Positions 22,928-64,000 are shown, counted from the stretch's first letter. The stretch: 64,000 bases of DNA from Candidatus Aenigmatarchaeota archaeon (GCA_043799675.1 JAZDNN010000024.1:32412-96411), one strand, 5' to 3'. Numbers and translations: made by a program. The notes: generated by a model from the sequence alone, not told the origin.

Positions 22928-23359
22928 ATGCCGAAGTTCAGGTTCATTCCCGAGATAGCGATAGCTGATGTAGCCTTCGAAGCGGAAGGTAAGGACATCA
23001 ATGAGCTGTTTGTGAACTGCGCCCTTGCAACCGAGGAATCCATGGTCAACACAAAGAAGGTGAAGCCGAAGGTCAGCAAGACCATAAAGCTGGAAGCGGA
23101 TGCGCTGGACAGACTGATGATTGACTGGCTGAACGAGGTGATTTACTACAAGGACGCGGAGGGGCTGCTGTTTTGTGAATTCATCGTCAAGGTATTGCAA
23201 AAGGGAAAGAACTGGACGCTTGAAGCCACGGCAAAGGGCGAAAAGAGGGACCCGAAGAAGCACGAGCTCAGGGCGGATGTGAAGGCGGCGACTTGGCACC
23301 TTTTTGAACTGAAGCAGGAAAAGGGCAAGTGGAAAGCGAGGATTGTAGAGGATATCTGA
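22928..23359 (+). CDS. Archease (RtcB cofactor)
   Basis: ADVAFEAEG..ELF, WLNEVIY, VKAATWH, C-terminal DI. Confidence 0.93.
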   Translation: MPKFRFIPEIAIADVAFEAEGKDINELFVNCALATEESMVNTKKVKPKVSKTIKLEADALDRLMIDWLNEVIYYKDAEGLLFCEFIVKVLQKGKNWTLEATAKGEKRDPKKHELRADVKAATWHLFELKQEKGKWKARIVEDI

Positions 23360-23368
23360 TTACAACGC

Positions 23369-24202
23369 TTAGCTGCGTATTCCGCGGATTGTCCCTGTCG
23401 TGAACACATTGTTGCCCTGGTCGACGTAATCTATCCGCACCGACACGCTGTACGGGTCCCCTGCGTTGCCGTTATTTCCCCGGCCGACATACCATGCGCT
23501 GTAATCGGGTTCCAGAGTTGGCGCGTTGATGTTGCTCAATAACGTTCCGTTCAGGGATACCAAGGCAATAGTTATAGCGTAATTGAAATGGGAATTCAGC
23601 AGGAGCATCCTGAAAGTGCCGTTATGCGAGTAATCTGCATCGATCACGTCTATGCTGCCGAAATCGGATATCATCTTCGGCGTGCATGCCTGCGATTCCT
23701 GCGGTTTTGTATTATTCAGACCGCACGAAGCGGCATCAACACACGTACGCGTCTGCATCGCATTGGCGCCGCAAACCGACCACGCGCTGCACTGCCATAC
23801 CGGGGCGCACGTGCATGCATCGCTTTCGGATGGCTTGCCTACGGTCGTCCCGCAGTGGTTCGAATCGCTGCACGTCCTTGTCTGGGTTCCCCCGACGCAC
23901 AGGGACCACGCACCGCAATACCAGTTCGGCGTACAATGGGTCACCTGCGCACAGCCGTTGGTTTCCTCCGGCCTGCCCGTGTTCGTACCGCAGGAGTTCT
24001 CATCAACGCACGTCCTGGTCTGGACTCCGGAGACCGAGCATGCGCTCCATGCGCCGCACTGCCAGTCCGGCGTGCATACAGCTGGTGTCGGTTCGGGTTC
24101 AATCGGCCTTACAATAAACTGCATGACGAATACCAACGCAAGCGCGATGAGCATCAGGGACAATATCAGGATGACGGCGTTTTTGCTTCCGAATTTCAGC
24201 AC
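23369..24202 (-). CDS. Membrane-anchored protein with three Cys/Trp (TSP1-like) repeats
   Basis: CTPxWxCxAWSxC...QTRTCxD..C repeated three times; paralog of 24267-25133. Confidence 0.82.
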   Translation of the reverse strand: MLKFGSKNAVILILSLMLIALALVFVMQFIVRPIEPEPTPAVCTPDWQCGAWSACSVSGVQTRTCVDENSCGTNTGRPEETNGCAQVTHCTPNWYCGAWSLCVGGTQTRTCSDSNHCGTTVGKPSESDACTCAPVWQCSAWSVCGANAMQTRTCVDAASCGLNNTKPQESQACTPKMISDFGSIDVIDADYSHNGTFRMLLLNSHFNYAITIALVSLNGTLLSNINAPTLEPDYSAWYVGRGNNGNAGDPYSVSVRIDYVDQGNNVFTTGTIRGIRS

Positions 24203-24266
24203 AACTGAAATGGTGATTATCGCTTAATAAAGAAAAATTTCGGCTTTGCTATCTGATTGCAGGCGC

Positions 24267-25133
24267 TTAGCTGCGCTCTCCGGAAACCGTTCCGGTAACT
24301 GAAAACCCGTTACTGCCGCTATCCAAGTATGTCATCGTTACAGCGAGGGTATATGGATCTCCAACGTGGCCATTCACTCCCATGGTATTTGTGCCTGTCA
24401 GCCATACCCTTTCCAGAGGGAATAAGTTCATGGGCACGTTCATGGATGGTATTTGTAAACCGTTGACGCTTACAGACGTAATGCTGATGGTATCGCCAAC
24501 CCTGTCCTCCACCCACAATTTTAACGTACCATTTGCAGCGTAATCGACATCCAGCACACCTATGTTCGTGAAGCCGCTGATTGTCTTGGGAGTGCAGGTC
24601 TGTGATTCCTGCGGTTTGCTTGTCGTTGTCCCGCAAGAATTCGTGTCAATGCATGTTCGCATCCGCGTTCCGCCGGCACCGCACGCGGACCATGCATCGC
24701 ATTGCCAGTTAGGAGTACATGTACATGGTTGTGTTTCCAAAGGCCTGTCGCTAAACAGATTGCATCTGTTTGCATCCGTGCATACCCTGCTCTGATTTCC
24801 CGAATTACTGCAATTGGTCCATGCACTGCACTGCCAGTCAGGCACGCAGGGTGGCGTGCAGAACTGGGTTTCAACAGGCTTGTTATAATTCACGCTGCAG
24901 GAATTCGCATCTATGCATGTCCTTGTCTGCGTTCCTGAAGCGGAGCATGCATTCCACGCCCCGCACTGCCAATCAGGCGTGCATACTGGGGGCATCAGAG
25001 GCCCACTTGGCTTAATCAGGGATTGCACAATATACAACGATGCAAGCGCAACGATTATTACAGCCAGAACCAAGATAATGACGTTTTTCTTTTCGGATTT
25101 AGGCACACCTATTTTCTTTTCTGACTTAGGCAC
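24267..25133 (-). CDS. Membrane-anchored protein with three Cys/Trp (TSP1-like) repeats
   Basis: Same architecture as neighbour; duplicated upstream region. Confidence 0.82.
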   Translation of the reverse strand: MPKSEKKIGVPKSEKKNVIILVLAVIIVALASLYIVQSLIKPSGPLMPPVCTPDWQCGAWNACSASGTQTRTCIDANSCSVNYNKPVETQFCTPPCVPDWQCSAWTNCSNSGNQSRVCTDANRCNLFSDRPLETQPCTCTPNWQCDAWSACGAGGTRMRTCIDTNSCGTTTSKPQESQTCTPKTISGFTNIGVLDVDYAANGTLKLWVEDRVGDTISITSVSVNGLQIPSMNVPMNLFPLERVWLTGTNTMGVNGHVGDPYTLAVTMTYLDSGSNGFSVTGTVSGERS

Positions 25134-25216
25134 ACCAAAAATGACTATTACCGCTTAATAAAGATGAATTTTGGCTTTGCTGCTTGATTTATTAGCGGCG
25201 CAAACGATTAGCTGGC

Positions 25217-26801
25217 ATGGAGCAGGAACCTGAAAAGCAGACAGGCAGTCTGCCGAAGGAAATCAAGAAAATCAGCGAGGTCGTCTGGGAACTGCCCACC
25301 AGCTACAAGAAAGGCATGCGCGTGCCGGCAAGAATATATGCGACCAAGAAGCTGCTCGATGCGATGGACGCGGGAGTGTTCGAGCAGGTCACCAACGTCG
25401 CGACCCTGCCGGGAATCGTCAAGCATGCGTTCTGTATGCCGGATGGGCACTGGGGTATGGGTCAAGTCGCGGCTTGATTCACTCAAATATGGGTTCCCAA
25501 TCGGCGGCGTGGCTGCATTCGACCCGAAGGTCGGCGTGATCAGCCCGGGCGGCATCGGGTTCGACATCAACTGCGGCATGAGGTTCGTCACTACCAACCT
25601 TACTGTCAAGGACGTCAAACCCAAGCTGAAAGAACTGGTGGATATCCTGTTCAGGACGGTTCCCGCGGGCGTGGGCGGGGAAGGGTTTGTAAAATTAAGC
25701 CGCAGCCAATTCGACGAAATAATGGTCCAAGGGGCCAATTGGGTCATCGAGCACGGCTACGGTTGGAAAGAGGACACGGAAAGAATAGAGGAGTACGGCT
25801 GCATCAAAGGTGCTGATCCGTCAAAGGTCAGCGACAAGGCAAGGACCAGAGGCATCACGCAGATGGGGACGCTCGGCTCAGGGAACCATTACCTGGAAAT
25901 CCAGACTGCCGAGAAAATTTTCCTTCCCGAAGTCGCAGAGGCATTCGGCGTGAACGAACAGGGGCAGATAGGGGTGATGGTGCACTGCGGCTCGAGGGGG
26001 TTCGGCCACCAAATCGGAACGGATTATCTCAGGATATTCGACATGGCAATGAAGAAGTACAACATCACGGTGCCTGACAGGGAGCTTGCCTGTGCGCCTT
26101 TTGCGAGCCAGGAAGGACAGGATTATTATCACGCGATGGCCTGCGCGGCAAACATGGCTTTTGCCAACAGGCAGGTGATTTTGCACAGGATACGCGAGGC
26201 TTTTGCAAAGGTGTTCAGGAAATCCCCCGAAGACATGGAAATGCACCTGGTGTACGATGTCGCGCACAACGTGGCCAAGGTGGAGAAACACCTGGTCGAC
26301 GGTCATGAAAAGGAACTGGTGATGCACCGGAAGGGGAGCACGCGCTGCTTCGGTCCGGGTAGGCCGGAGATTCCTGAAGCTTACCGCAAGGTCGGCCAGC
26401 CGGTGATTGTGGGCGGCAGCATGGAAACGGGCAGCTTTTTGTGCGTGGGCACGGACAAGGCTCTGACAGAAACATGGGGAAGCACCATGCACGGCGCGGG
26501 CAGAACCATGAGCAGGACTTCAGCGAGGAACCAGGGCTCGGGCTTGGCGTTGCAGAAGAAGATGGCCAAGGAAGGGATACTGGTGGAAGCCACGAGCATG
26601 AGCGGGCTTGCAGAGGAAGCGGGCTTTGCCTACAAGGACCTGAACGAAGTGGTCGAGACCATGGAAATCGCGGGCGTGAGCAGGAAGGTCGTTCTGCTGA
26701 GGCCTTTGGGTAATATTAAAGGCACCGCCCGGGCCTCATACAGCCTTTTAGCTTTCCCCATACTTGTCATGGTCTTGGCCTTGATTTCGTCCCTTATCTG
26801 A
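25217..26801 (+). CDS. rtcB: RtcB RNA-splicing ligase, join(25217..25456,25488..26801)
   Basis: MPDGHWG|YGFPIGG, GFDINCG, GNHYLE, HCGSRG, HN, HRKG, HGAGR, EEAG.AYK, NIKG; a single frame is restored by removing 31 nt. Confidence 0.95.
25457..25487 (+). other. 31-nt BHB intron in rtcB mRNA
   Basis: Central helix UGGG(25451-54)/CUCA(25482-85), bulges GU^A and AA^U, 10-bp intron stem closing a CGCG loop; cuts give TGG GGT TAT GGG (WGYG). Confidence 0.88.
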
Positions 26802-27865
26802 ACGATAAGCGGTTCGACCTGTTTCCACCTCGTGATGTTCTTGCCGATTATTTCGAGAATCAATTCCTTTTTGGCCGTTTTCTCGGGATGCCTCAACGGC
26901 AGCAATTCGAGCATCCGACGGACATCGGCCTTCCTGAAGATTTCTAAGGCGAAATAATCCTTGCTGTATCTTATACTGACCCCATGAGTGTCTCTGCCGT
27001 CCCCGCGCCTGAAAATCCTGTATAGAATTGGATTAAAGCCCTGTTCCCTTAGTTGCCGTTTTATCCTACCAAGCAAGGTTTTATTTTCGGTGCCTATCCG
27101 CATACAACACTGCAAATTTTCCCTGATTTTCTTGACCAGAAGCGACCCTTCCGCATCGAAGTAGCCGGCCAGGAACGACAGGAAAACATTCCGTTCGGAT
27201 TCGACCAACTCTGAAATCAATCGTTTCCTGTTTTCCAGCAAGAGGAAGTCGAAGCTGTTGTCGAGGTCTGCGGATGTCGTCCACATGTAATTTCCAAAAG
27301 TTCTGTTCTTCGCAGGATATGTCCTTACCTTCGCATATCCTTTGAACAGGCTCTCGAAGACATCCAGGAATCCTTCATGAGTCGTGTTGGTTATGGCCCG
27401 AATGGTATGCTTCGATCTTCTGAAGGCTGTCACATCACCCTCCACGAAACCAACCATGTAAGCCTTTTCTTCATCCTTTCCATCAAAACTTTGCCGTTCA
27501 TGTTTCCTGTTTGTCAGCAGGATAGCCTCATCGTTTCCACGCACCCGAAAGCCGTTTTCTTCCAGCACCTTATGCAACGTGCCTTTGGAAGAACCAAATT
27601 TCTTGGCCAGCTTTTTCAACGATATTTTCTCCGTGTCATAAAGTCTCAGAATTTCCGTCACAGGCAGGTGTTTCCTGTGAGACAACGAATGTGCCTGACT
27701 GAGATTCCTTATCGGTATGTCAAGTTTGATGAACCGTTTTCTTACGGCCGACCACGATATATCGTCTCCGAGCTTAACACTCAATATCGCCGCCACTTCT
27801 TTGAACGTCTTACCGGACGAATAGAGACTCTCGGCTTCCTTCAGGAGTTCGCTGTTCAGCTTCAT
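26630..27865 (-). CDS. Free-standing LAGLIDADG homing-endonuclease-like protein with N-terminal HTH repeats
   Basis: AYMVGFVEGD and FLAGYFDAEGS motifs; LPLRHPEK. Confidence 0.88.
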   Translation of the reverse strand: MKLNSELLKEAESLYSSGKTFKEVAAILSVKLGDDISWSAVRKRFIKLDIPIRNLSQAHSLSHRKHLPVTEILRLYDTEKISLKKLAKKFGSSKGTLHKVLEENGFRVRGNDEAILLTNRKHERQSFDGKDEEKAYMVGFVEGDVTAFRRSKHTIRAITNTTHEGFLDVFESLFKGYAKVRTYPAKNRTFGNYMWTTSADLDNSFDFLLLENRKRLISELVESERNVFLSFLAGYFDAEGSLLVKKIRENLQCCMRIGTENKTLLGRIKRQLREQGFNPILYRIFRRGDGRDTHGVSIRYSKDYFALEIFRKADVRRMLELLPLRHPEKTAKKELILEIIGKNITRWKQVEPLIVQIRDEIKAKTMTSMGKAKRLYEARAVPLILPKGLSRTTFLLTPAISMVSTTSFRSL

Positions 27866-27920
27866 GGTCGTCTATTATATCCCGTTAGGCACTATAAATT
27901 GATATATATTCTCGAGCACA

Positions 27921-28997
27921 CTAATCATGCAGAATACATCCAAAAATATTATTATACCTTCCAGCGAGCGCATTTCTCAACCTGAACGTGTCGCCCTGCG
28001 CCGCATAGGCCATCCAGCCCTCAAGGCTTTTCGCAGCCTGTTCTGCCGAAATCTCACCGGATTCGTACTGCAGTCTGAGTGCCGTCATCCTTTTTTCGAG
28101 CTTCAGCAGGTTCCTCCTTTTTGGAATCCTGTAGTGGTAGAACACCCTGAAGCCGAGCAACGATATCCCCTTATGCAAAGGGTAGACCTGCGATTTTTCC
28201 TCATGCAACTCTAGCTTTAACCGTTGTTTGAGGAACCCGTTTATCCCGCTCCTGAACTGCATCAGCGCGGCCTCAGACCTGTCCAGAATCACGAAGTCAT
28301 CTACATACCGGAGATAGAACCTTGCCTTAAGCACGTGCTTCACGAAATGGTCCAGCTCATTCAGGTAGACGTTCGCGAAGAACTGGCTCGTCTGATTGCC
28401 TATCGGCATCCCCTTCGGCAGGGCAGGGTCGTTGTTCGACAGGATTTTCCGTACCAGCCAGAGCACGCTTTCGTCCCTTATTTTTCTCCGTATGATGCCA
28501 ATCAGGACATCGTGGTCGACGCTCGGGAAATAGTGCCTTATGTCGGCCTTCAGTGCATAGCCGACCACCATGTTGTTGTCCTTCGCGCCGTGCACCAAAC
28601 GGCCGTTCCCGGAAACCTTTCGCTTGAAGCAATCAAACCTGTCCAATGCTGCCAGGCCGCCCTTTCCCTTCCTGTTGGCGTAGCTGTCGTGGATGAACGT
28701 TTTGTCGAAAATCGGTTCGAGCACGTTGCATAACGCATGATGGACAACACGGTCCCTGAAATGCGAGGCATGAATTACCCGTGTCTTGGGGTCGCGGATG
28801 ATGAACCGTTTCAACGGGCGCGGCGAATACGTACGATTTTCAAGCTCAGTTTTCAAATCTGCCAATTCGCCATCAAGATTAGCTTCGAATCTTTTGACAT
28901 ACCATTTCTTCGACTTGCCCTTCCTCGCCTTTCTGAATGCCAGCAAAAGGTTCTCTGGCGAGCAGACCTTTCCGTAAAGGTTGTCAAATGTTTTCAA
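27921..28997 (-). CDS. DGR reverse transcriptase
   Basis: KTRVIHASHFRDRVVHHA, DIRHYFPS, GMPIGNQTSQFFAN (DGR-type SQ motif), RYVDD, LGF. Confidence 0.96.
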   Translation of the reverse strand: MKTFDNLYGKVCSPENLLLAFRKARKGKSKKWYVKRFEANLDGELADLKTELENRTYSPRPLKRFIIRDPKTRVIHASHFRDRVVHHALCNVLEPIFDKTFIHDSYANRKGKGGLAALDRFDCFKRKVSGNGRLVHGAKDNNMVVGYALKADIRHYFPSVDHDVLIGIIRRKIRDESVLWLVRKILSNNDPALPKGMPIGNQTSQFFANVYLNELDHFVKHVLKARFYLRYVDDFVILDRSEAALMQFRSGINGFLKQRLKLELHEEKSQVYPLHKGISLLGFRVFYHYRIPKRRNLLKLEKRMTALRLQYESGEISAEQAAKSLEGWMAYAAQGDTFRLRNALAGRYNNIFGCILHD

Positions 28998-29046
28998 AAA
29001 TATCCCCTATCGGCGGCCCGTGCTATTGGCGCAGACCCCGTTGTCA

Positions 29047-29079
29047 TTCAGGCTTCCCGCCAAAAGGCAATGAGGAAGT
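29047..29079 (-). other. TR intron 3 (33 nt, BHB)
   Basis: CAGG-AA^A-CUUCC...GGAAG-CCUG-AA^U. Confidence 0.85.
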
Positions 29080-29104
29080 TTCCTGTTCGAGGGCCTGTTC
29101 GCAT

Positions 29105-29135
29105 TTATGCCGGCGGAACGTTTCCTTCCAACCGT
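29105..29135 (-). other. TR intron 2 (31 nt, BHB)
   Basis: AUGC-GA^A-CGGU...GCCG-GCAU-AA^A. Confidence 0.85.
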
Positions 29136-29151
29136 TCGCATTGAAGCACCC

Positions 29152-29168
29152 TTGACGGCCCGAAGGCT
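29152..29168 (-). other. TR intron 1 (17 nt, BHB)
   Basis: GACG-AG^A-GCC(UUCG)GGC-CGUC-AA^G. Confidence 0.85.
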
Positions 29169-29442
29169 CTCGTCCGTGTTCCAATCCGACCTGACGGAAG
29201 GGTTTCGGTAGCCTCTCCACCGACATGACACCGCGGCTTCAATCTTCGGGAACCTACCAACTGAAACCGCTGAATTTAATGGCACAAGCATTCGGACGGC
29301 ATGAAATGCCATCGCACCATCTTGCGCTCTATGGAAAGGCGTATAGCGCGGGCCTTTGCCGGGAGAATGAAATACCCGCCCCCCGATTGGGAAGGAAAGA
29401 ACTCTGTCATGCAAAAATTGAGGGACGAAACGATTTATGCGC

Positions 29443-30189
29443 CTATTTTGAGGTCTTAACCGCTTTTTTTGCGGCGCAGACCCCGAGGTCATGCCTGAGC
29501 GAGGGCCCGCCCGCATCCGCATCGAAGCACCCCCCGTCGGAGTGCCAAGTCGACCTGACGGAAGCCACTTCAACCGGGATTAAGGCTTCTGTTTCGATTT
29601 CTACTATATCCAGTTTGTTGTCTTTCATCCTGTAAGAAGCCGCTTTCTGTTTGGCCAGCTTTTGGATGACCTCAAGATTATGATTCCAGTAATCGTCCAT
29701 CGTTGCCTTGTATTCCTTGTCGGAATTCATCAGTTCAGCCGACTCCTGTGCCTTGAAGTGTCTTACTCCAAAGTCCAGCTTGAACTCCTCGGGTATTCTC
29801 TGATAGACCAGTTCCTGGATTATCCTGTCCGCATTGGCGATGAACCCTTTGCGTTTATAGTCCCTGAACTTTCCTGCGTCCCCTTTGGCCATCAGGAGCG
29901 CATAGCCTTTCTTTTCAAGGTCCTTTTCCAGCCTCTTTCCGTCAATTATGGCCAATATTTCATCGACCTCTCCCAACCTTTCTTTTACAGAAAAATCATC
30001 ATCAAATATTACAGAGCCATTGTAAGCGGCCAGCTTCGAATCATACGCGCCTGCTGCACGCAGATAATCGAGAACACAGCCTTCAACAGTTACAGGCACG
30101 GCTTTTCCCGTGAACCTGAATTCCCCGTCGATAATCCTCACTTCAGGCTCGGGCATCACGACCGTTGTTATTTTGCTCATGATAATCAT
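29443..30189 (-). CDS. DGR target protein 1 (C-terminal VR)
   Basis: C-terminus ASVRSTWHSDGGCFDADAGGPSLRHDLGVCA is encoded by VR1. Confidence 0.9.
   Translation of the reverse strand: MIIMSKITTVVMPEPEVRIIDGEFRFTGKAVPVTVEGCVLDYLRAAGAYDSKLAAYNGSVIFDDDFSVKERLGEVDEILAIIDGKRLEKDLEKKGYALLMAKGDAGKFRDYKRKGFIANADRIIQELVYQRIPEEFKLDFGVRHFKAQESAELMNSDKEYKATMDDYWNHNLEVIQKLAKQKAASYRMKDNKLDIVEIETEALIPVEVASVRSTWHSDGGCFDADAGGPSLRHDLGVCAAKKAVKTSK
29473..29564 (-). repeat. DGR variable repeat VR1
   Basis: 92 nt; 16 mismatches to the spliced TR, 14 at TR adenines (manual count). Confidence 0.9.
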
Positions 30190-30192
30190 TCT

Positions 30193-30918
30193 TCAGAAGT
30201 GCTTCTTCACGACTTCGAGGTCTTTCATCAAAGCGTCATATTTCTTTGACTTTTCCAGAAGCTCCCGGTATTCGCTCTCCGCGACCTCGCACATCTTCGG
30301 AAGCTCGGCCTTCTCGTCCGTTTTAAGGAGGGCGCAGACCCCGTCGTCAGCCCAGTGCGAGGGCCTGCCCGCAGTCGCATTGAAGCACCCCTCGCCCGTG
30401 GTCCAAGCCGACCTGACGGAAGCTTCACCGTTTTCAAACGAGATGCTTCCCCTCCAGACCTTCTTTTTCGGTTTCTTGAACAGCCCGGCATTCACGAGTG
30501 TATCAAAGACGTCCGATTTGCTTATCCCGGCCCTTGTTCTTTTGCCGTCATATTTGAGTTCACCGTTCACTTCCTTCACGACGGGGTCGGCTATTATCTC
30601 GCCCTTCTCAAGGGCGACTTCCCTGTTGTGCAACCAATAATCAATATTCATTTTCTTGAACGACTTGTCCTCGTGCACCAAATCGTAAGAAACCTGCAAC
30701 GGCAGGAGCGTGTAGCGCTCGCCGACCTTCTTTGATACTTCCTGACCGAGAAGCGTCATCTGCCTGTGGTCGAGGTTCGCCACGAGGCCATTGCCTTTGT
30801 AGTCGTTGTGCCCTTCGGCAGGACTTCCCTTCCATTTCGGGAAATACACCGTTTCCTTGCCCGTGGGCGGCACTATCTTTCCCGCTATCTCATGGACGAT
30901 TTCGGCCTGTGTTACCAT
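30193..30918 (-). CDS. DGR target protein 2
   Basis: Contains VR2 (ASVRSAWTTGEGCFNATAGRPSHWADDGVCA) followed by a ~40-aa helical tail. Confidence 0.9.
   Translation of the reverse strand: MVTQAEIVHEIAGKIVPPTGKETVYFPKWKGSPAEGHNDYKGNGLVANLDHRQMTLLGQEVSKKVGERYTLLPLQVSYDLVHEDKSFKKMNIDYWLHNREVALEKGEIIADPVVKEVNGELKYDGKRTRAGISKSDVFDTLVNAGLFKKPKKKVWRGSISFENGEASVRSAWTTGEGCFNATAGRPSHWADDGVCALLKTDEKAELPKMCEVAESEYRELLEKSKKYDALMKDLEVVKKHF
30331..30422 (-). repeat. DGR variable repeat VR2
   Basis: 92 nt; 11 mismatches to the spliced TR, all at TR adenines (manual count). Confidence 0.93.
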
Positions 30919-30978
30919 GAGGACAATACCACCGCAAAGGATTTAAGCGGAAGACTGAACGTAAACGGCTTGAACTAC

Positions 30979-31701
30979 TCAATCGCCGCATTCGTCCAAA
31001 GCCGCTTTCCTAAAATCCAACGATTTAGGAGGGTCCTTCAGAAACTGTTGATATTCGCTCTCCGCAATCTTGCGCACCTTCGGCTTCTCAACGGCCTTGC
31101 CCGTTTTCACGAAGGCGACAACCCCGCGGTCAGGCCCGGAGGAGGGCCAAGACGCACCCACAGCGAAGCACCCAAAACGGTTTCCCGACTTGACGGAAGA
31201 AATGCCGTCATTCTCGTAAATGATGCCCCAATCACAGACGTTGTGATTGAGCTGCTTGAACAGTTTTGCGCTGGCAAGCGTCTTTATCACGGACTCTGCG
31301 TCAATGTTCGCCTTTACGCTCCTGCAACCATCATTGAGCCTGAGCTCGCCGTCGACTTCGCTGACAATCGGGACGGAAATAACATCCCCGTTTCTCCGTA
31401 TGACTTCCCTGTTGATTATCTTATAATCGGCCATCATTTTCTTGAAACTTCTGTCATTATGCACCAAATCATAACTCGTCTGAAACGGAAGTTCGGCATA
31501 ACGCTCGCCCACTTTCTCGGATATCATCTGACCCAAGAACACGGACTGCCACTTATCGAGAGTCGCAACAAAACCCTTACCGTAACGATCGTTGCGTCCT
31601 TCTATCGGACTTCCCTTCCACTTCGGAAAATACGCCGTTTCCTTGCCGGTAGGCATCCTAATCTTGTCCAAAATTTCATAGACGATTTCAGCTTCACCCA
31701 T
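30979..31701 (-). CDS. Paralog of DGR target 2 with degenerate VR
   Basis: Shared PTGKET.YFPKWKGSP.EG and GERY..LP.Q.SYDLVH.D.SFKKM; VR-like segment at 31114-31199. Confidence 0.85.
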   Translation of the reverse strand: MGEAEIVYEILDKIRMPTGKETAYFPKWKGSPIEGRNDRYGKGFVATLDKWQSVFLGQMISEKVGERYAELPFQTSYDLVHNDRSFKKMMADYKIINREVIRRNGDVISVPIVSEVDGELRLNDGCRSVKANIDAESVIKTLASAKLFKQLNHNVCDWGIIYENDGISSVKSGNRFGCFAVGASWPSSGPDRGVVAFVKTGKAVEKPKVRKIAESEYQQFLKDPPKSLDFRKAALDECGD

Positions 31702-51418: not shown

Positions 51419-52195
51419 GTGAAGCTCGCCCTGGGCAGGAAACGCGCGGTCATTGCCATTCTAATCGTGGCAGTACTTGGAGCGGTCGCCTATCAAAGCA
51501 TGCAGCCGGGGCAGGAGAACCCGGTGGTCACGCTTTGCGAGCAGCAGTTCAGGCAGGGTAATGCAGGAAACTATTCCGGATTTTTCGCCTGCATAACCGA
51601 ATCCGCAGTGGCCCAGCTCGACCCCGGAATATGCGGGACGCGGATGGACACATGGATGCAGTCCGACTGCATAAAGGCGGTGATTGCAGCGGCGCCCGAG
51701 GATCCGGCGGTCTATGAGAAGCTCCGGAACCCGTACCTGCGGGGAATGCTCCAATATCAAAAGGGCAACTTATCTTCCGATGAGTCCAATCCTGACTTCG
51801 GCATAGAGATATACTTTCTGGACATCGTCAGGAACGAGACGAACATCCCAATCAACACCTCGGAAAAGCACATGTTCATCTGCGAGGAAATCGACAACGT
51901 CTATCCGAGAAGCCAGTGCTACATGGCCATCGCATGGGCAACGAACAACACCTCAGTCTGCGAAAGGGTCCAGATTGATTCCTACAAGGACGGATGCTAC
52001 TGGAACATCGTAAATAAGATACCCGACCCGACGATTTGCGGGAATATCGTGGACATACTCACGCGGACCGACTGCTATTCCTATATCGCCTCAATGACAA
52101 AGGACGCTTCAATCTGCGAGAAAATTGAAATCCCTGAAAGAAAGAACATATGCTACCAGTCCGTATCGGAAATGAAGACAGGAGTCAAAACATGA
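51419..52195 (+). CDS. Membrane-anchored protein with Cys-rich repeats
   Basis: C-x2-I...CY..IA....D...C repeats. Confidence 0.75.
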   Translation: MKLALGRKRAVIAILIVAVLGAVAYQSMQPGQENPVVTLCEQQFRQGNAGNYSGFFACITESAVAQLDPGICGTRMDTWMQSDCIKAVIAAAPEDPAVYEKLRNPYLRGMLQYQKGNLSSDESNPDFGIEIYFLDIVRNETNIPINTSEKHMFICEEIDNVYPRSQCYMAIAWATNNTSVCERVQIDSYKDGCYWNIVNKIPDPTICGNIVDILTRTDCYSYIASMTKDASICEKIEIPERKNICYQSVSEMKTGVKT

Positions 52196-53394
52196 AGACC
52201 GCCAATCAATGGAAAAAGCTGCGGACCGCCGCAATCATTATCATAGTAGTTGCGCTGATTTACTCCCAGGCGGATTCTATCATGTGCTCGATAACAAACG
52301 TCCTAACCCCCGAGCACCCGTGCTCCTGTCAGGTCGCAGCTGAGAAGAACAGGGTGACCGTTGTCGTAGAAGAGGGCGGGATATATGACACCGATGTGGT
52401 CACTTCCGCGATTTCTGGGTACTTCGCATCGGTAAAGAAGGACCTGAACATCGAGAATGCCGGCATAAAGAAGTTTTCAGGAAAGACCGTGGGAGAATTA
52501 GACAAATTCGTCGATGACTTGTATACAAATGACAATGTCGGCTACATCATCCTGCTCGGGGACGATCTGCCGACCACGGACATCAACACGACCAGCTTTG
52601 AAAACATTGCAGCCATATACTGGAAACTCAAGTGCGTGAACGGGGACTGCGGCTGCTGCAACTGCAGGGACATGGCGATATCGTCCATAATGCCGCCGTT
52701 CGCCTATGCGGATGCCGAAAAGATTAGCTTCATCATCAGAATGGTGGAAACGTACACGGACTACCACAACAACTTCGCGAGCTACATGGAGAAGTACCCG
52801 CGAAAGGCTCTCCGCCTCACGGACTACATGGGAAGCGATAACGGGGAATACATCGGGCTTGAAGACCCGAAAACCTGGCTCGGCTATGACATGCCCCAGG
52901 AATACGTCTTCAACACGGAATACCAACGGGTGGCTGACGAATTGAGCGGCAAGCACCTTGTGCTGCGCTTCAGCATACACGGGGACCCGAACACGGGAAG
53001 GGACATGTCATTGAGCATCGTAGGCAAACAGCAGCTTGAACGGATGGGAGGGCAGATGTTCCTGTCAGCAAGCCATACGAGCCCATACTGGTCTACCGTT
53101 GACGAGTACCTGGAGTTCGCTAGGGAGAACGGCACACCCGCGCTGTTCGTGGATGCCATGTCCTGCGGGGACATCATTATCAGGTCACCAACAAATAGTT
53201 CGAATTACTGCTGCTGGCCGCAGGCGTTCACGGACACGGGCACGTGGGCATATTACAGCTTCGGCGGCGGCAACGAGGAAGTCATGAGGATGAGGAAGGC
53301 CCTCTCGAACGAGCAGACCATAGGCCTTGCGATGAGGAAGTACCTGGTGCAGCAGGACTTCGTGTTCGGCGACATCCTGGCGCATATGAGGTGA
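52192..53394 (+). CDS. Secreted peptidase C25 (gingipain)-like protein
   Basis: YIILLGD, IHG (His), AMSC (Cys), FGD near C-terminus. Confidence 0.6.
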   Translation: MKTANQWKKLRTAAIIIIVVALIYSQADSIMCSITNVLTPEHPCSCQVAAEKNRVTVVVEEGGIYDTDVVTSAISGYFASVKKDLNIENAGIKKFSGKTVGELDKFVDDLYTNDNVGYIILLGDDLPTTDINTTSFENIAAIYWKLKCVNGDCGCCNCRDMAISSIMPPFAYADAEKISFIIRMVETYTDYHNNFASYMEKYPRKALRLTDYMGSDNGEYIGLEDPKTWLGYDMPQEYVFNTEYQRVADELSGKHLVLRFSIHGDPNTGRDMSLSIVGKQQLERMGGQMFLSASHTSPYWSTVDEYLEFARENGTPALFVDAMSCGDIIIRSPTNSSNYCCWPQAFTDTGTWAYYSFGGGNEEVMRMRKALSNEQTIGLAMRKYLVQQDFVFGDILAHMR

Positions 53395-53398
53395 TCTG

Positions 53399-54583
53399 GT
53401 GAAAAGAAGAAGCAAGATTATACTGGCGGCCGTGGCGGCGTCCCTTGCCTTCTGCGTTATCGCGTTCAGTGACGAGATCAGATATTTGACCAACAGCATC
53501 AATGCCAATGCCATCTGTTTTCCGGACTCGTCAAAGGACAAGATTTCATTCATCATCGCCGAGAACGGGACCTATGACAACGAAAAGGTCAGCCTGCAAA
53601 TCTCAAAGTATTTCGATTCGGTCAAAAAGGACCTGAGCATCGACAATGCCGGCATAAAGAAATTCCCGGGGAAAACAGTGGACGAACTGGACAAATTCGT
53701 TGACGACCTTTATTTGAACGATGATGTCGGTTACATTATTCTGCTCGGGGACAATCTGCCGGTCGCCAACGTTACCGAGAACGATGCCACCAACCAGGCT
53801 GCCATCTATGAAAAGCTTTCATGCGTAAACGGGGACTGCCTGGTCAGAAAGGAACGGGGAGACTCTCCGACCGTAACGGGACAAGAGGCATACTATCGGT
53901 GCCATGATGTGGCAATTTCGTACATACTGCCGCCAATTCCGTATTCGGACAGCGAGAAAATCGACTTTGTCCTGAAAATACTGGAGACTTATACGGACTA
54001 CCACAACAACTTTGCAACTCATATCGGCAAATACCAGAAATCGATGCTTCACATCGCGGACCCGTACTTCGTGGGAGATTGTCTAAAATCATCAATAGAC
54101 AACCCGATATTAAGATATGACCTGCCTGTAATTACCATCTCGGGCACAGAGCGCGAAAAGGTATTTGACGAACTTAAGAACAAATACCTTATCCTGCATT
54201 ACGGCATACACGGTTCAACTTGGATACTGCAGCTTACCAACGGTTGTTCCAACGAAAGCATCCAGCCTCAAACTCTGAGGTTGAGCGAGTATTCGAACTT
54301 TACAAAGGAATACGGAACACCGGCGCTTTTCGTTGCCCCCGGCGCATGCGAAGCCATGACAATTAGAGATGACCTCGACCCCTGGGAGTTATCCAAATAT
54401 CCTGAAAGAAGGCACTGCTGCTGGCCTCAGATATTCATGGAGTCCGGAGCCTGGGCATACTATTATATGCCACATGGAAGGGGGAATACCTTTTTGTACG
54501 AAAAGACAATAGGCCTGGCCATCAGGAAAAGCAATGTGGAACAGTTTTTCATCTTCGGAGACATACTGGCGCATATGAGGTAA
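53399..54583 (+). CDS. Secreted peptidase C25-like protein (tandem paralog)
   Basis: YIILLGD, IHG, GAC; identical FGDILAHMR end. Confidence 0.6.
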   Translation: MKRRSKIILAAVAASLAFCVIAFSDEIRYLTNSINANAICFPDSSKDKISFIIAENGTYDNEKVSLQISKYFDSVKKDLSIDNAGIKKFPGKTVDELDKFVDDLYLNDDVGYIILLGDNLPVANVTENDATNQAAIYEKLSCVNGDCLVRKERGDSPTVTGQEAYYRCHDVAISYILPPIPYSDSEKIDFVLKILETYTDYHNNFATHIGKYQKSMLHIADPYFVGDCLKSSIDNPILRYDLPVITISGTEREKVFDELKNKYLILHYGIHGSTWILQLTNGCSNESIQPQTLRLSEYSNFTKEYGTPALFVAPGACEAMTIRDDLDPWELSKYPERRHCCWPQIFMESGAWAYYYMPHGRGNTFLYEKTIGLAIRKSNVEQFFIFGDILAHMR

Positions 54584-63246: not shown

Positions 63247-63888
63247 ATGAGGTGGCTAGCATAGAGAAGCGGTCTTCAACTTTTCTAAAAGCAATATTTG
63301 TTTTTCAGGGTGATGAAACCCGAACTTCTGCCGAAACTTTTTCAGATTCTGTATTCCATAGATGTGGAGAACCCATATCCCGCGCTTGTCTTGCAACAAG
63401 TGAACGGGTTTTATTCCGGCACGTTCCAAAACAGTTTTGGTGACATGAAGCAGTTCATGCTTCTTGTTGTATGCACGCAAGCTATAGCGTCGCTTTGAAA
63501 CGCTTCCTTCGGCGTCGAACAGACCCTGAACGAATCCTTTTTGAAATGAAGCCGGCATTGACAGAACTCTGCCAAAATCCTTTCTCATCTCAATGAGTTC
63601 GTTGTAAAGGTCCTTCGAATAAACCACAAGCCTGTAGTATTTTCTGCTCTTCCTTTGTCTGATACTGGACTTGAGGTGAAAACCCTGTTGAAGGGCTTTC
63701 CTTACTTCAAGCAGCCAGCGCCGATCCAACTGTTCTATTTCCAGGATGTATTCAAACTTCTTTTCCTTGAAGTAGACGGTCCCGTCCTCGGCCGCGCCGA
63801 AGACGAATCCGCGCTCGCGCTGCATGCAATAACATTGCCGAAGGTACAAATAAAGTTGAAGACCCAATTTTGTCTCTACGCTAGCCAT
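63247..63888 (-). mobile_element. 23S BHB intron (~E. coli 2449), 642 nt, encoding a homing endonuclease
   Basis: GGGG-AU^A-UGGCUAGCGUAGAGA ... UCUCUAUGCUAGCCA-CCUC-AU^A; splicing restores GGGGAUAACAG. Confidence 0.92.
63256..63888 (-). CDS. Intron-encoded LAGLIDADG homing endonuclease
   Basis: GFVFGAAEDG and GFVQGLFDAEGS; FGFHHPEK. Confidence 0.9.
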   Translation of the reverse strand: MASVETKLGLQLYLYLRQCYCMQRERGFVFGAAEDGTVYFKEKKFEYILEIEQLDRRWLLEVRKALQQGFHLKSSIRQRKSRKYYRLVVYSKDLYNELIEMRKDFGRVLSMPASFQKGFVQGLFDAEGSVSKRRYSLRAYNKKHELLHVTKTVLERAGIKPVHLLQDKRGIWVLHIYGIQNLKKFRQKFGFHHPEKQILLLEKLKTASLC

Positions 63889-64000
63889 ATCCCCGGGGTA
63901 GCTTTTCTGAAGTCACCGACGGCCATCAGTGCCCAGCTCGGTGTATCGCTATGCCCGACTTTCGTCTCTCAATCCTTTGCTTTGCGGGATCGAGTCAGGC

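Follow-up and report, generated by a model that had tools for sequence, protein, structure and literature searches.

A diversity-generating retroelement with three predicted bulge-helix-bulge introns in its template, adjacent to an interrupted rtcB gene in a Candidatus Aenigmatarchaeota archaeon

Positions 22,928 to 31,701 of a 64,000-nucleotide stretch from Candidatus Aenigmatarchaeota archaeon (GCA_043799675.1 JAZDNN010000024.1:32412-96411; the whole stretch is referred to as the window) hold a diversity-generating retroelement (DGR) beside the genes archease and rtcB, the latter encoding the splicing ligase. The template repeat (TR) of this DGR is colinear with the variable repeats (VRs) of its target genes after removal of three putative introns with bulge-helix-bulge (BHB) geometry, and rtcB itself is interrupted by another intron of this type. 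The locus probably holds two features that depend on BHB splicing and that are not wired together by their position, their adjacency being a matter of positional history. The source genome is an assembly of 749 kb and 83% completeness; related genomes are referred to by G numbers and retrieved loci by L numbers.

Introns in the template repeat

Compared with VR1 and VR2, the TR contains three extra stretches of 17, 31 and 33 nt. BHBs were scanned for as two 3-nt bulges on opposite strands with a 4-bp helix between them, and the cut (marked ^) was placed after the second bulge nucleotide, as deduced from the canonical tRNA 37/38 site. Each of the three stretches is bounded by such a structure. 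Intron 1 shows the helix GACG/CGTC with bulges ag^a and aa^g and an inner GCC-UUCG-GGC hairpin; intron 2 shows the helix ATGC/GCAT with bulges ga^a and aa^a; and intron 3 shows the helix CAGG/CCTG with bulges aa^a and aa^t and an inner helix of 6 bp. A first, sequence-only reading of the window had proposed BHB introns in the DGR template, and this was borne out by the predicted cuts, which yield a 93-nt template colinear with both VRs. When the insert in rtcB is counted as well, four of four inserts have the BHB in the register that the VRs or the protein demand, with an inner helix of 3-10 bp. In 8 related loci, BHB-shaped cuts were obtained for 22 of 111 VR-consistent placements and for 21 of 8480 controls shifted by up to 8 nt.

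Between the spliced TR of 93 nt and VR1, differences fall on 14 of the 22 A sites and on 3 of the 71 remaining sites; for VR2 the counts are 11 A sites and one other site. The adenine bias between TR and VR that characterizes a DGR is obtained only with the three inserts removed. The alignment supports the view that the VRs could only have been written from TR RNA freed of all three introns, and the element looks live, judging from the adenine-restricted differences between TR and VRs. Because the three inserts are absent from the VRs and bounded by BHBs, a dependence of the DGR in trans on the splicing endonuclease EndA and on RtcB is strongly indicated.

Assembled metagenome contigs cover the stretch only in parts. 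In two short contigs from one wetland metagenome run, which represent a related population and not reads of this strain, 12 of the 15 listed VR1 differences were located at TR adenine sites. A 227-nt contig from a sediment metagenome (run X4) spans positions 28939-29160 with 26 differences and contains TR introns 2 and 3 without gaps. A related sediment population keeps these two introns.

Reverse transcriptase, targets and RT-16 RNA

The translated reverse transcriptase (RT) contains the motif I-G-N-Q-T-S-Q, which presumably marks DGR RTs, and the motif Y-V-D-D. Its RVT_1 match is the only one in the assembly, and no second RT was found there. VR1 and VR2 lie within approximately the last 40 codons of their respective target open reading frames (ORFs). 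Structure prediction for target 1, with an alignment of 7 rows as input, gave a mean predicted local distance difference test value (pLDDT) of 53.6, with values below 50 in the VR region. The VR-like stretch of target paralogue 3 is 73% identical to VR1 over 60 nt and shows, by eye, several differences from the TR and the VRs at sites other than A; this paralogue is probably no longer rewritten. Avd, which is not universal among DGRs, gave no Pfam match in the ORFs between the targets and the RT, and bAvd-like ORFs flank 7 related RTs.

The match to the RT-16 RNA spans the full model, i.e. positions 1-158 of 158. It ends exactly at the start of the TR in this genome and in 10 of 12 related DGR loci (L044, L045, L046, L047, L253, L257, L258, L260, L264 and L280). 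Since RT-16 ends where the TR begins, it is predicted to form the structured 5′ domain of this lineage's DGR RNA. RT-16 is an orphan Rfam motif near RT genes, to which PMC5737381 assigns no function.

The rtcB intron and the splicing machinery

The RtcB domain is complete, its 426 model positions being split over two exons in two reading frames. The insert between them forms a BHB with the helix TGGG/CTCA, bulges gt^a and aa^t and a 10-bp inner helix, and its excision restores the frame as H-W-G^Y-G-F-P-I-G-G (^ marks the junction). An intron of this type in the ligase mRNA had likewise been proposed from the sequence, and the predicted cut matches the junction defined by the protein exactly. 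A second rtcB was not found in the 83%-complete assembly, and a search for RNA ligases of family PF09414 returned a single borderline match (27.7 bits) in a frame of 572 aa. It is supported by these findings that the sole rtcB found would need BHB splicing to restore its own reading frame. At the other end of the gene, the RtcB domain terminates near position 26723. The stop codon that should follow ...N-I-K-G, the canonical end of rtcB, is missing (26720-26801), and the ORF extends by a further 25 codons, antisense to the LAGLIDADG gene; G034 and G001 retain the usual stop.

Six BHB introns in rtcB were counted among this genome and its relatives (loci including L029, L030, L032, L012 and L026), and they occupy two fixed sites, both in conserved active-site motifs. 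At site 1, this genome, G023 and G006 carry BHB introns of unrelated sequence. At site 2, G-G-I-G^(Y/F)-D-I-N-C-G, introns were present in G005, G006 and G008, all with BHB structure. In rtcB of G003 and G004, the second site is occupied by an intein-like open frame of approximately 1000 aa. The rtcB of G016 carries an in-frame insert with a TAG codon, and BHB removal would lead to a product that is one residue short.

EndA is encoded by two adjacent paralogous genes on contig C10, at 51469-52295 (-) and 53588-53842 (+), each with a tRNA_int_endo domain. The histidine of the catalytic triad was seen, in a reading by eye, in only one of the two ORFs. In the relevant part of PMC5829648, heteromeric splicing endonucleases are given as the type with broad specificity, and the two-gene arrangement, as judged by eye, fits this type. 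An ORF of 228 aa with a LAGLIDADG match lies approximately 1.3 kb from the EndA genes on C10. For archease, the part of PMC3973293 on its operon with RtcB describes it as an activator of RtcB.

Distribution of template introns in the phylum

The phylum was sampled with 371 genomes, 53 of which had an RT homologue; 40 of these loci were fetched. Split TRs were detected phylum-wide by self-BLAST, and a strict test demanded a BHB together with the correct junction. Twenty of the 40 fetched loci contained a split TR, which was always the RT-proximal copy, and 18 of these 20 passed the strict test with 23 introns. In the 8 related loci, 22 introns at homologous TR positions passed the test as well, and G088 added another two, giving a total of 27 loci (8 + 18 + 1) with 47 BHB-consistent TR introns. 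In the 8 related loci, the 4-bp helices covary, e.g. that of intron 1, which reads AACG/CGTT in G034 and G023, and the inner stems are unrelated in sequence. Intron 2 has counterparts at the homologous site in relatives, and the site of intron 3 is the most widely conserved across the phylum. Compensatory helix changes extend over the 47 TR introns and the 6 rtcB introns, those of this genome included. These comparisons argue that the TR introns are real and old and that they are a lineage trait, found at homologous TR positions across the phylum. The rtcB introns, with their two recurrent sites, are likewise a trait of the lineage.

Related RT loci with TR/VR pairs were also retrieved from bacteria of the candidate phyla radiation (CPR) and from DPANN archaea (named after Diapherotrites, Parvarchaeota, Aenigmarchaeota, Nanoarchaeota and Nanohaloarchaeota). 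In RT relatives labelled Woese-, Pace- or Nanoarchaeota or CPR bacteria, the TR/VR pairs are mostly contiguous. A looser junction filter applied to 80 metagenome loci gave many false matches in AT-rich DNA and was discarded; only two of its candidates, L145 and L164, looked credible, and they were not counted.

Two explanations would make splicing of the TR unnecessary: the RT might jump the hairpins, or the VRs might have been written by another, uninterrupted TR, with the present one decaying. In their favour, the genome is 83% complete, and no RNA sequencing run is listed as containing the locus stretch (the best share in a DNA run was 0.09). Taken together, they are very improbable. The BHB is in exact register at every insert, in the proportions given above for true and shifted placements, and across 27 loci its position is conserved and its structure maintained by compensatory changes; in rtcB, a motif of this same kind restores the frame. 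Neither another RT nor an intron-less TR copy was found in the 83%-complete assembly, and the differences between TR exons and VRs are confined almost entirely to adenines, as expected of a live template.

A genome-wide ORF-fusion test for further mRNA introns yielded 3561 candidates, compared with 3695 and 3668 in frame-shifted controls. In genome-wide counts of structures alone, the controls, by their construction or through strand symmetry, contained the very structures that were counted. Both searches are thus uninformative on intron density. Among 58 of the 86 stop-to-stop ORFs of the window (those inside 22.8-35.2 kb and obvious antisense frames excluded), Pfam revealed no further gene that was clearly split, a search which in-frame introns would escape. 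ARAGORN found zero tRNA genes in the 64-kb window. In relatives, tRNA matches of 119-120 nt (L044, 13418-13536; L047, 13749-13868) are probably intron-containing tRNA genes. DGR cassettes of the loci L249-L287 often lie in or beside translation genes, namely those of Phe-, Ser-, Thr-, Ile- and Leu-tRNA synthetases; further sites in this series were the ribosomal-protein/SecY cluster and, in G180, ksgA.

Position of the element relative to rtcB

The gene order archease-rtcB-S26e-RpoF-ksgA is conserved in relatives, and archease adjoins rtcB in many of them; in G001, approximately 50 nt separate the stop of rtcB from S26e. In the present genome and in G034 this gap is filled by the LAGLIDADG gene and the DGR, with the DGR cassette inverted between the two. 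In G088 a DGR is likewise found between rtcB and S26e, in another arrangement with the RT upstream, two ORFs between and no LAGLIDADG gene. These are the only three of the 27 intron-bearing TR loci with rtcB in their fetched flanks. They come from three different families.

The sequence-only reading had combined these neighbours into a circuit in which EndA and RtcB activity switches protein hypermutation on, and had proposed to test whether linkage of rtcB and archease to DGRs recurs and correlates with introns in the TR. A recurrent, conserved linkage was not found. Most intron-bearing TR loci (24 of 27) are unlinked to rtcB, which is the first half of the outcome that the sequence-only reading had named as refuting the circuit, and among 151 RT loci with 1.13 Mb of flanking DNA, rtcB was present in 3, with 1.1-1.9 expected, which is near chance. 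A quick tree places RTs of one host family together, and every RT linked to rtcB has a sister that is not. In G001, whose RT is 82-83% identical, the DGR lies on another contig than rtcB; in G023 it adjoins a different LAGLIDADG gene and topoisomerase VI B; in G104 it is located inside a ribosomal-protein cluster, 209 kb from rtcB; and in G102, a near sister, it is also located away from rtcB. In all four the TR introns are kept. The status of rtcB does not follow the DGR either, the gene being uninterrupted in G034, G001 and G012, all with intron-bearing TRs, and interrupted in G005, G006 and G024, where the RT search found none. Two tRNA genes and an integrase of the phage type are found just upstream of the DGR of G001 (L044, 2520-4307), which looks like an integrated element.

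A dedicated circuit, in which the linkage of archease, rtcB and the intron-bearing DGR had been selected for co-inheritance or co-regulation and RtcB and EndA licensed hypermutation, is improbable on this evidence. It would account for the presence of all components within 9 kb, for the three families with an intron-bearing DGR in the rtcB-S26e interval, and for a metagenome locus with an RT at the start of archease (L203, described below). Three TR introns at fixed sites phylum-wide, at a density far above that of ordinary genes of the window, also suggest selection on the introns. Against this stand the 24 unlinked loci, the unlinked sisters with their introns, the overall frequency of proximity and the geometry, which differs in each linked case (convergent in one, with an inverted cassette in the second, and with the RT upstream and two intervening ORFs in the third). 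Moreover, rtcB is intron-free in G034 and G088, EndA is encoded on another contig, and since rtcB and the DGR are convergent, no shared transcript is possible. What stood of the proposed circuit is the predicted dependence of both the DGR and rtcB in trans on splicing; its arrangement as a circuit at one locus did not stand.

Chance integration beside rtcB, the alternative that had been offered to the circuit, comes closer, but is too simple, as 3 of 8 RTs of one clade share the rtcB-S26e interval. This share suggests a location held in common since long ago or a hot spot for insertion, either of which appears more likely than pure chance.

Several points weigh against the reading preferred here, that of two splicing-dependent features brought together by positional history. 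The linkage of 3 of 8 RTs of one clade does not look like pure chance, and among the 26 other intron-bearing TR loci two are linked, compared with a rough post hoc estimate of approximately 0.2-0.3. Interruption of rtcB was found in 4 of 8 scorable RT-bearing genomes and in 4 of 27 others, a weak trend in an order sample of non-independent relatives. In L203 (10001-14762), the RT ORF overlaps the start of archease by 4 nt and rtcB lies 2.3 kb away, in the order RT, archease, PhoU-like, PHO4, rtcB; this RT is distant (39% identical) with one in-frame stop near its start, and the locus was not counted as a DGR, as a repeat search with a length threshold of 30 gave no TR/VR pair. A weak selective advantage of proximity might perhaps be read from such cases. 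The tree was a quick one of RTs only, in which the clade of 8 RTs has a support of 80 and many forks are unresolved, and many contigs are short, so that some loci are called unlinked from only a few kb of flanking DNA. With regard to splicing, the outer exon-exon helix of all four BHBs is weak (0-2 contiguous bp), which departs from the strict hBHBh′ form. Owing to this weak outer helix, cleavage would need an endonuclease of broad specificity.

The LAGLIDADG gene at the 3′ end of rtcB

The LAGLIDADG gene is convergent with rtcB and lies immediately downstream of the RT. Both LAGLIDADG motifs of its protein end in an acidic residue, D144 and E/D239, of which the former is invariant and the latter conserved among 8 homologues. 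Homologues were detected in 51 of 371 genomes, and the 9 best of them, in L136-L143 (G203, G301, G104, G073, G118, G126, G072 and G129) and in L046 (G034), are all convergent at the 3′ end of rtcB, in several families. A site-specific, free-standing homing endonuclease gene would be expected to show such a distribution. In 6 of 49 loci (this genome, G034, G023, G264, G172 and G106), with 0.5-1 expected, the DGR cassette has a free-standing LAGLIDADG gene as its direct neighbour, an association noticed post hoc.

It is possible, if doubtful, that the DGR travels with the LAGLIDADG gene or was captured beside it, spreading by co-conversion or using the protein as an accessory nuclease. The placement of the 9 best homologues, the conserved catalytic acidic residues and the excess of flanking genes favour such an association, as do G264 and G172, where, as in the present genome, the LAGLIDADG gene comes right after the RT and shares its strand. 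The DGR of G088, however, adjoins rtcB without any LAGLIDADG gene, and in 8 other cases the pair of rtcB and LAGLIDADG gene lacks a nearby RT. The flanking LAGLIDADG proteins are of different lineages, that of G023 matching at the level of the motifs only and that of G172 giving no tblastn match, and the cassette is variably oriented with respect to the LAGLIDADG gene. The genomes are, in addition, rich in such domains (15 LAGLIDADG_3 matches in this genome and 36 in G023). The adjacency of LAGLIDADG gene and DGR suggests hitch-hiking or a shared site preference rather than a splicing circuit.

Several of the LAGLIDADG_3 matches of this genome are located inside very long, intein-like open frames, and a second free-standing LAGLIDADG gene is present in the window at 63259-63912 (-).

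Organization of the locus

The features of the locus are listed in Table 1. ORF translations and Pfam matches showed that the gene content and strands had been given correctly by the sequence-only reading, with archease and rtcB on the plus strand converging on the LAGLIDADG gene, RT, TR and targets on the minus strand. The ORFs of rtcB and the LAGLIDADG gene overlap in antisense by 172 nt at their 3′ ends, and a non-coding spacer of 446 nt separates the RT from the three target genes, which are paralogues of one another. Archease and rtcB, direct neighbours in relatives, are separated here by the genes for two cysteine-rich proteins, which are paralogues with 47% identity. A similar cysteine-rich repeat protein adjoins an RT in the metagenome locus L194.

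Table 1. Features of the archease-rtcB-DGR locus (positions counted from the first nucleotide of the window)
Feature	Position	Strand	Remarks
archease	22928-23359	+	Pfam PF01951, E 7e-39
Cysteine-rich repeat protein gene A	23369-24202	-	no Pfam family
Cysteine-rich repeat protein gene B	24267-25133	-	no Pfam family
rtcB, whole	25217-26801	+	Pfam PF01139
rtcB exon 1	25217-25456	+	RtcB model positions 1-27; ends ...HWG; predicted BHB cut after 25456
rtcB BHB intron (predicted), 31 nt	25457-25487	+	within conserved H-x-G-Y-G-F-P-I-G-G motif
rtcB exon 2	25488-26801	+	RtcB model positions 25-426, +1 frame
LAGLIDADG_3 ORF	26630-27865	-	Pfam LAGLIDADG_3 plus N-terminal helix-turn-helix matches
DGR RT	27921-28997	-	Pfam RVT_1
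TR, four exons (93 nt) and three predicted BHB introns	29028-29201	-	
TR intron 1, 17 nt	29152-29168	-	BHB geometry
TR intron 2, 31 nt	29105-29135	-	BHB geometry
TR intron 3, 33 nt	29047-29079	-	BHB geometry
RT-16 RNA (Rfam RF03019)	29203-29379	-	57.2 bits, gathering score 50
Target gene 1	29443-30189	-	VR1 at 29473-29565
Target gene 2	30193-30918	-	VR2 at 30331-30423
Target paralogue 3	30979-31701	-	decayed VR-like stretch at approximately 31114-31173

Discussion

According to the reading preferred here, the DGR, comprising RT-16, TR, RT, two live targets and a decayed one, would be transcribed from the minus strand. The putatively heteromeric EndA encoded on contig C10 would then cut the three BHBs of the TR and RtcB would join the exons, and the RT would copy only the spliced 93-nt template, with adenine-specific errors, into VR1 and VR2. 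With a 31-nt intron in the motif of its catalytic site, new RtcB would be possible only where RtcB, helped by archease, is already present. The interval between rtcB and S26e, in which the DGR sub-lineage is found in three genomes, may be its old shared home or an insertion hot spot; it would also host the free-standing homing endonuclease gene, putatively specific for the 3′ end of rtcB. In the sister genomes the DGR would have moved elsewhere with its introns retained.

A more far-reaching proposal is that the TR introns are kept by selection as a gate, so that rewriting takes place only with spare tRNA-splicing capacity. The level of RtcB might then be bistable or heritable through the cytoplasm, with hypermutation switching along with the state of RNA processing, the rtcB-S26e interval might be the birthplace of these DGRs, and the LAGLIDADG protein might aid their spread or the integration of complementary DNA (cDNA). 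This combination is regarded as unlikely. The steep threshold and the self-activation that the sequence-only reading had attributed to the locus are hypotheses that do not require linkage to rtcB; such linkage is a feature of a few genomes and not of the system, and interpreting it as an operon-like circuit is not warranted.

RT, template and target of a DGR are known to form a self-contained unit, and here the template is predicted to need three steps of host tRNA splicing, in at least 27 loci of one DPANN phylum. The TR introns would tie accelerated protein evolution to RNA processing. They offer a test case for whether BHB introns can regulate genes and for why a template should contain introns at all, be it as a gate, as protection of the TR from its own cDNA or as prevention of recombination between TR and VR. 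The rtcB intron offers another, namely how an intron can persist in the gene of an essential ligase if RtcB alone can remove it. A literature search found no paper joining DGRs or template repeats with BHBs or splicing endonucleases, and none that describes an rtcB intron among those on rtcB, introns in mRNA, DPANN and Aenigmarchaeota.

Comparison with known systems

A BHB intron is reportedly present in the mRNA of cbf5, in work ascribed to Watanabe (2002), Yoshinari (2006) and Yokobori (2009). The present case resembles it in its short, BHB-bounded intron and in a two-gene endonuclease of heteromeric appearance. In contrast to cbf5, the host gene here is the splicing ligase itself, the insertion affects a motif of the catalytic site, and two fixed sites are used in many DPANN genomes.

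Free-standing homing endonuclease genes beside conserved genes are known from T-even phages. As in those, the LAGLIDADG gene is sporadic and fast-evolving, with conserved catalytic residues, and is always found at the 3′ end of rtcB. It differs from them in directly following the RT of a DGR, and its homing activity is putative.

HAC1/XBP1 splicing is unconventional and cytoplasmic, with a non-spliceosomal cut followed by ligation, and can act as a switch. In principle the present case is alike, in that cutting and ligation by RtcB would precede a functional product; unlike HAC1/XBP1, it would involve no IRE1-like sensor nuclease, and one of the predicted substrates is a template for reverse transcription and not an mRNA. 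The splicing of XBP-1 by RtcB is treated in the pertinent part of PMC8718801.

In the archease-RtcB operon, as outlined in the relevant part of PMC3973293, the two genes are neighbours on the same strand, as in the relatives of this genome; here they share the strand, whereas two genes on the opposite strand intervene and rtcB is interrupted. The RT-16 motif (RF03019), in the section of PMC5737381 devoted to it, adjoins RT genes as it does here, where the full model matches above the gathering score; here it also abuts the TR.

A further comparison is with other DGRs, including those of archaea, i.e. of Nanoarchaeota and of a virus of anaerobic methanotrophic archaea (ANME), as presented in the relevant sections of PMC4372165 and PMC5758913. 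The passages on introns in these two surveys deal with group II introns only. An RT of the DGR type, adenine-specific differences between TR and VR, VRs at the 3′ end of the targets and several targets in tandem are shared with the present element. It differs from those DGRs in that no Avd gene was found and RT-16 abuts the 5′ side of the TR, and in a TR interrupted by three predicted BHB introns, whose removal is needed for a match to the VRs.

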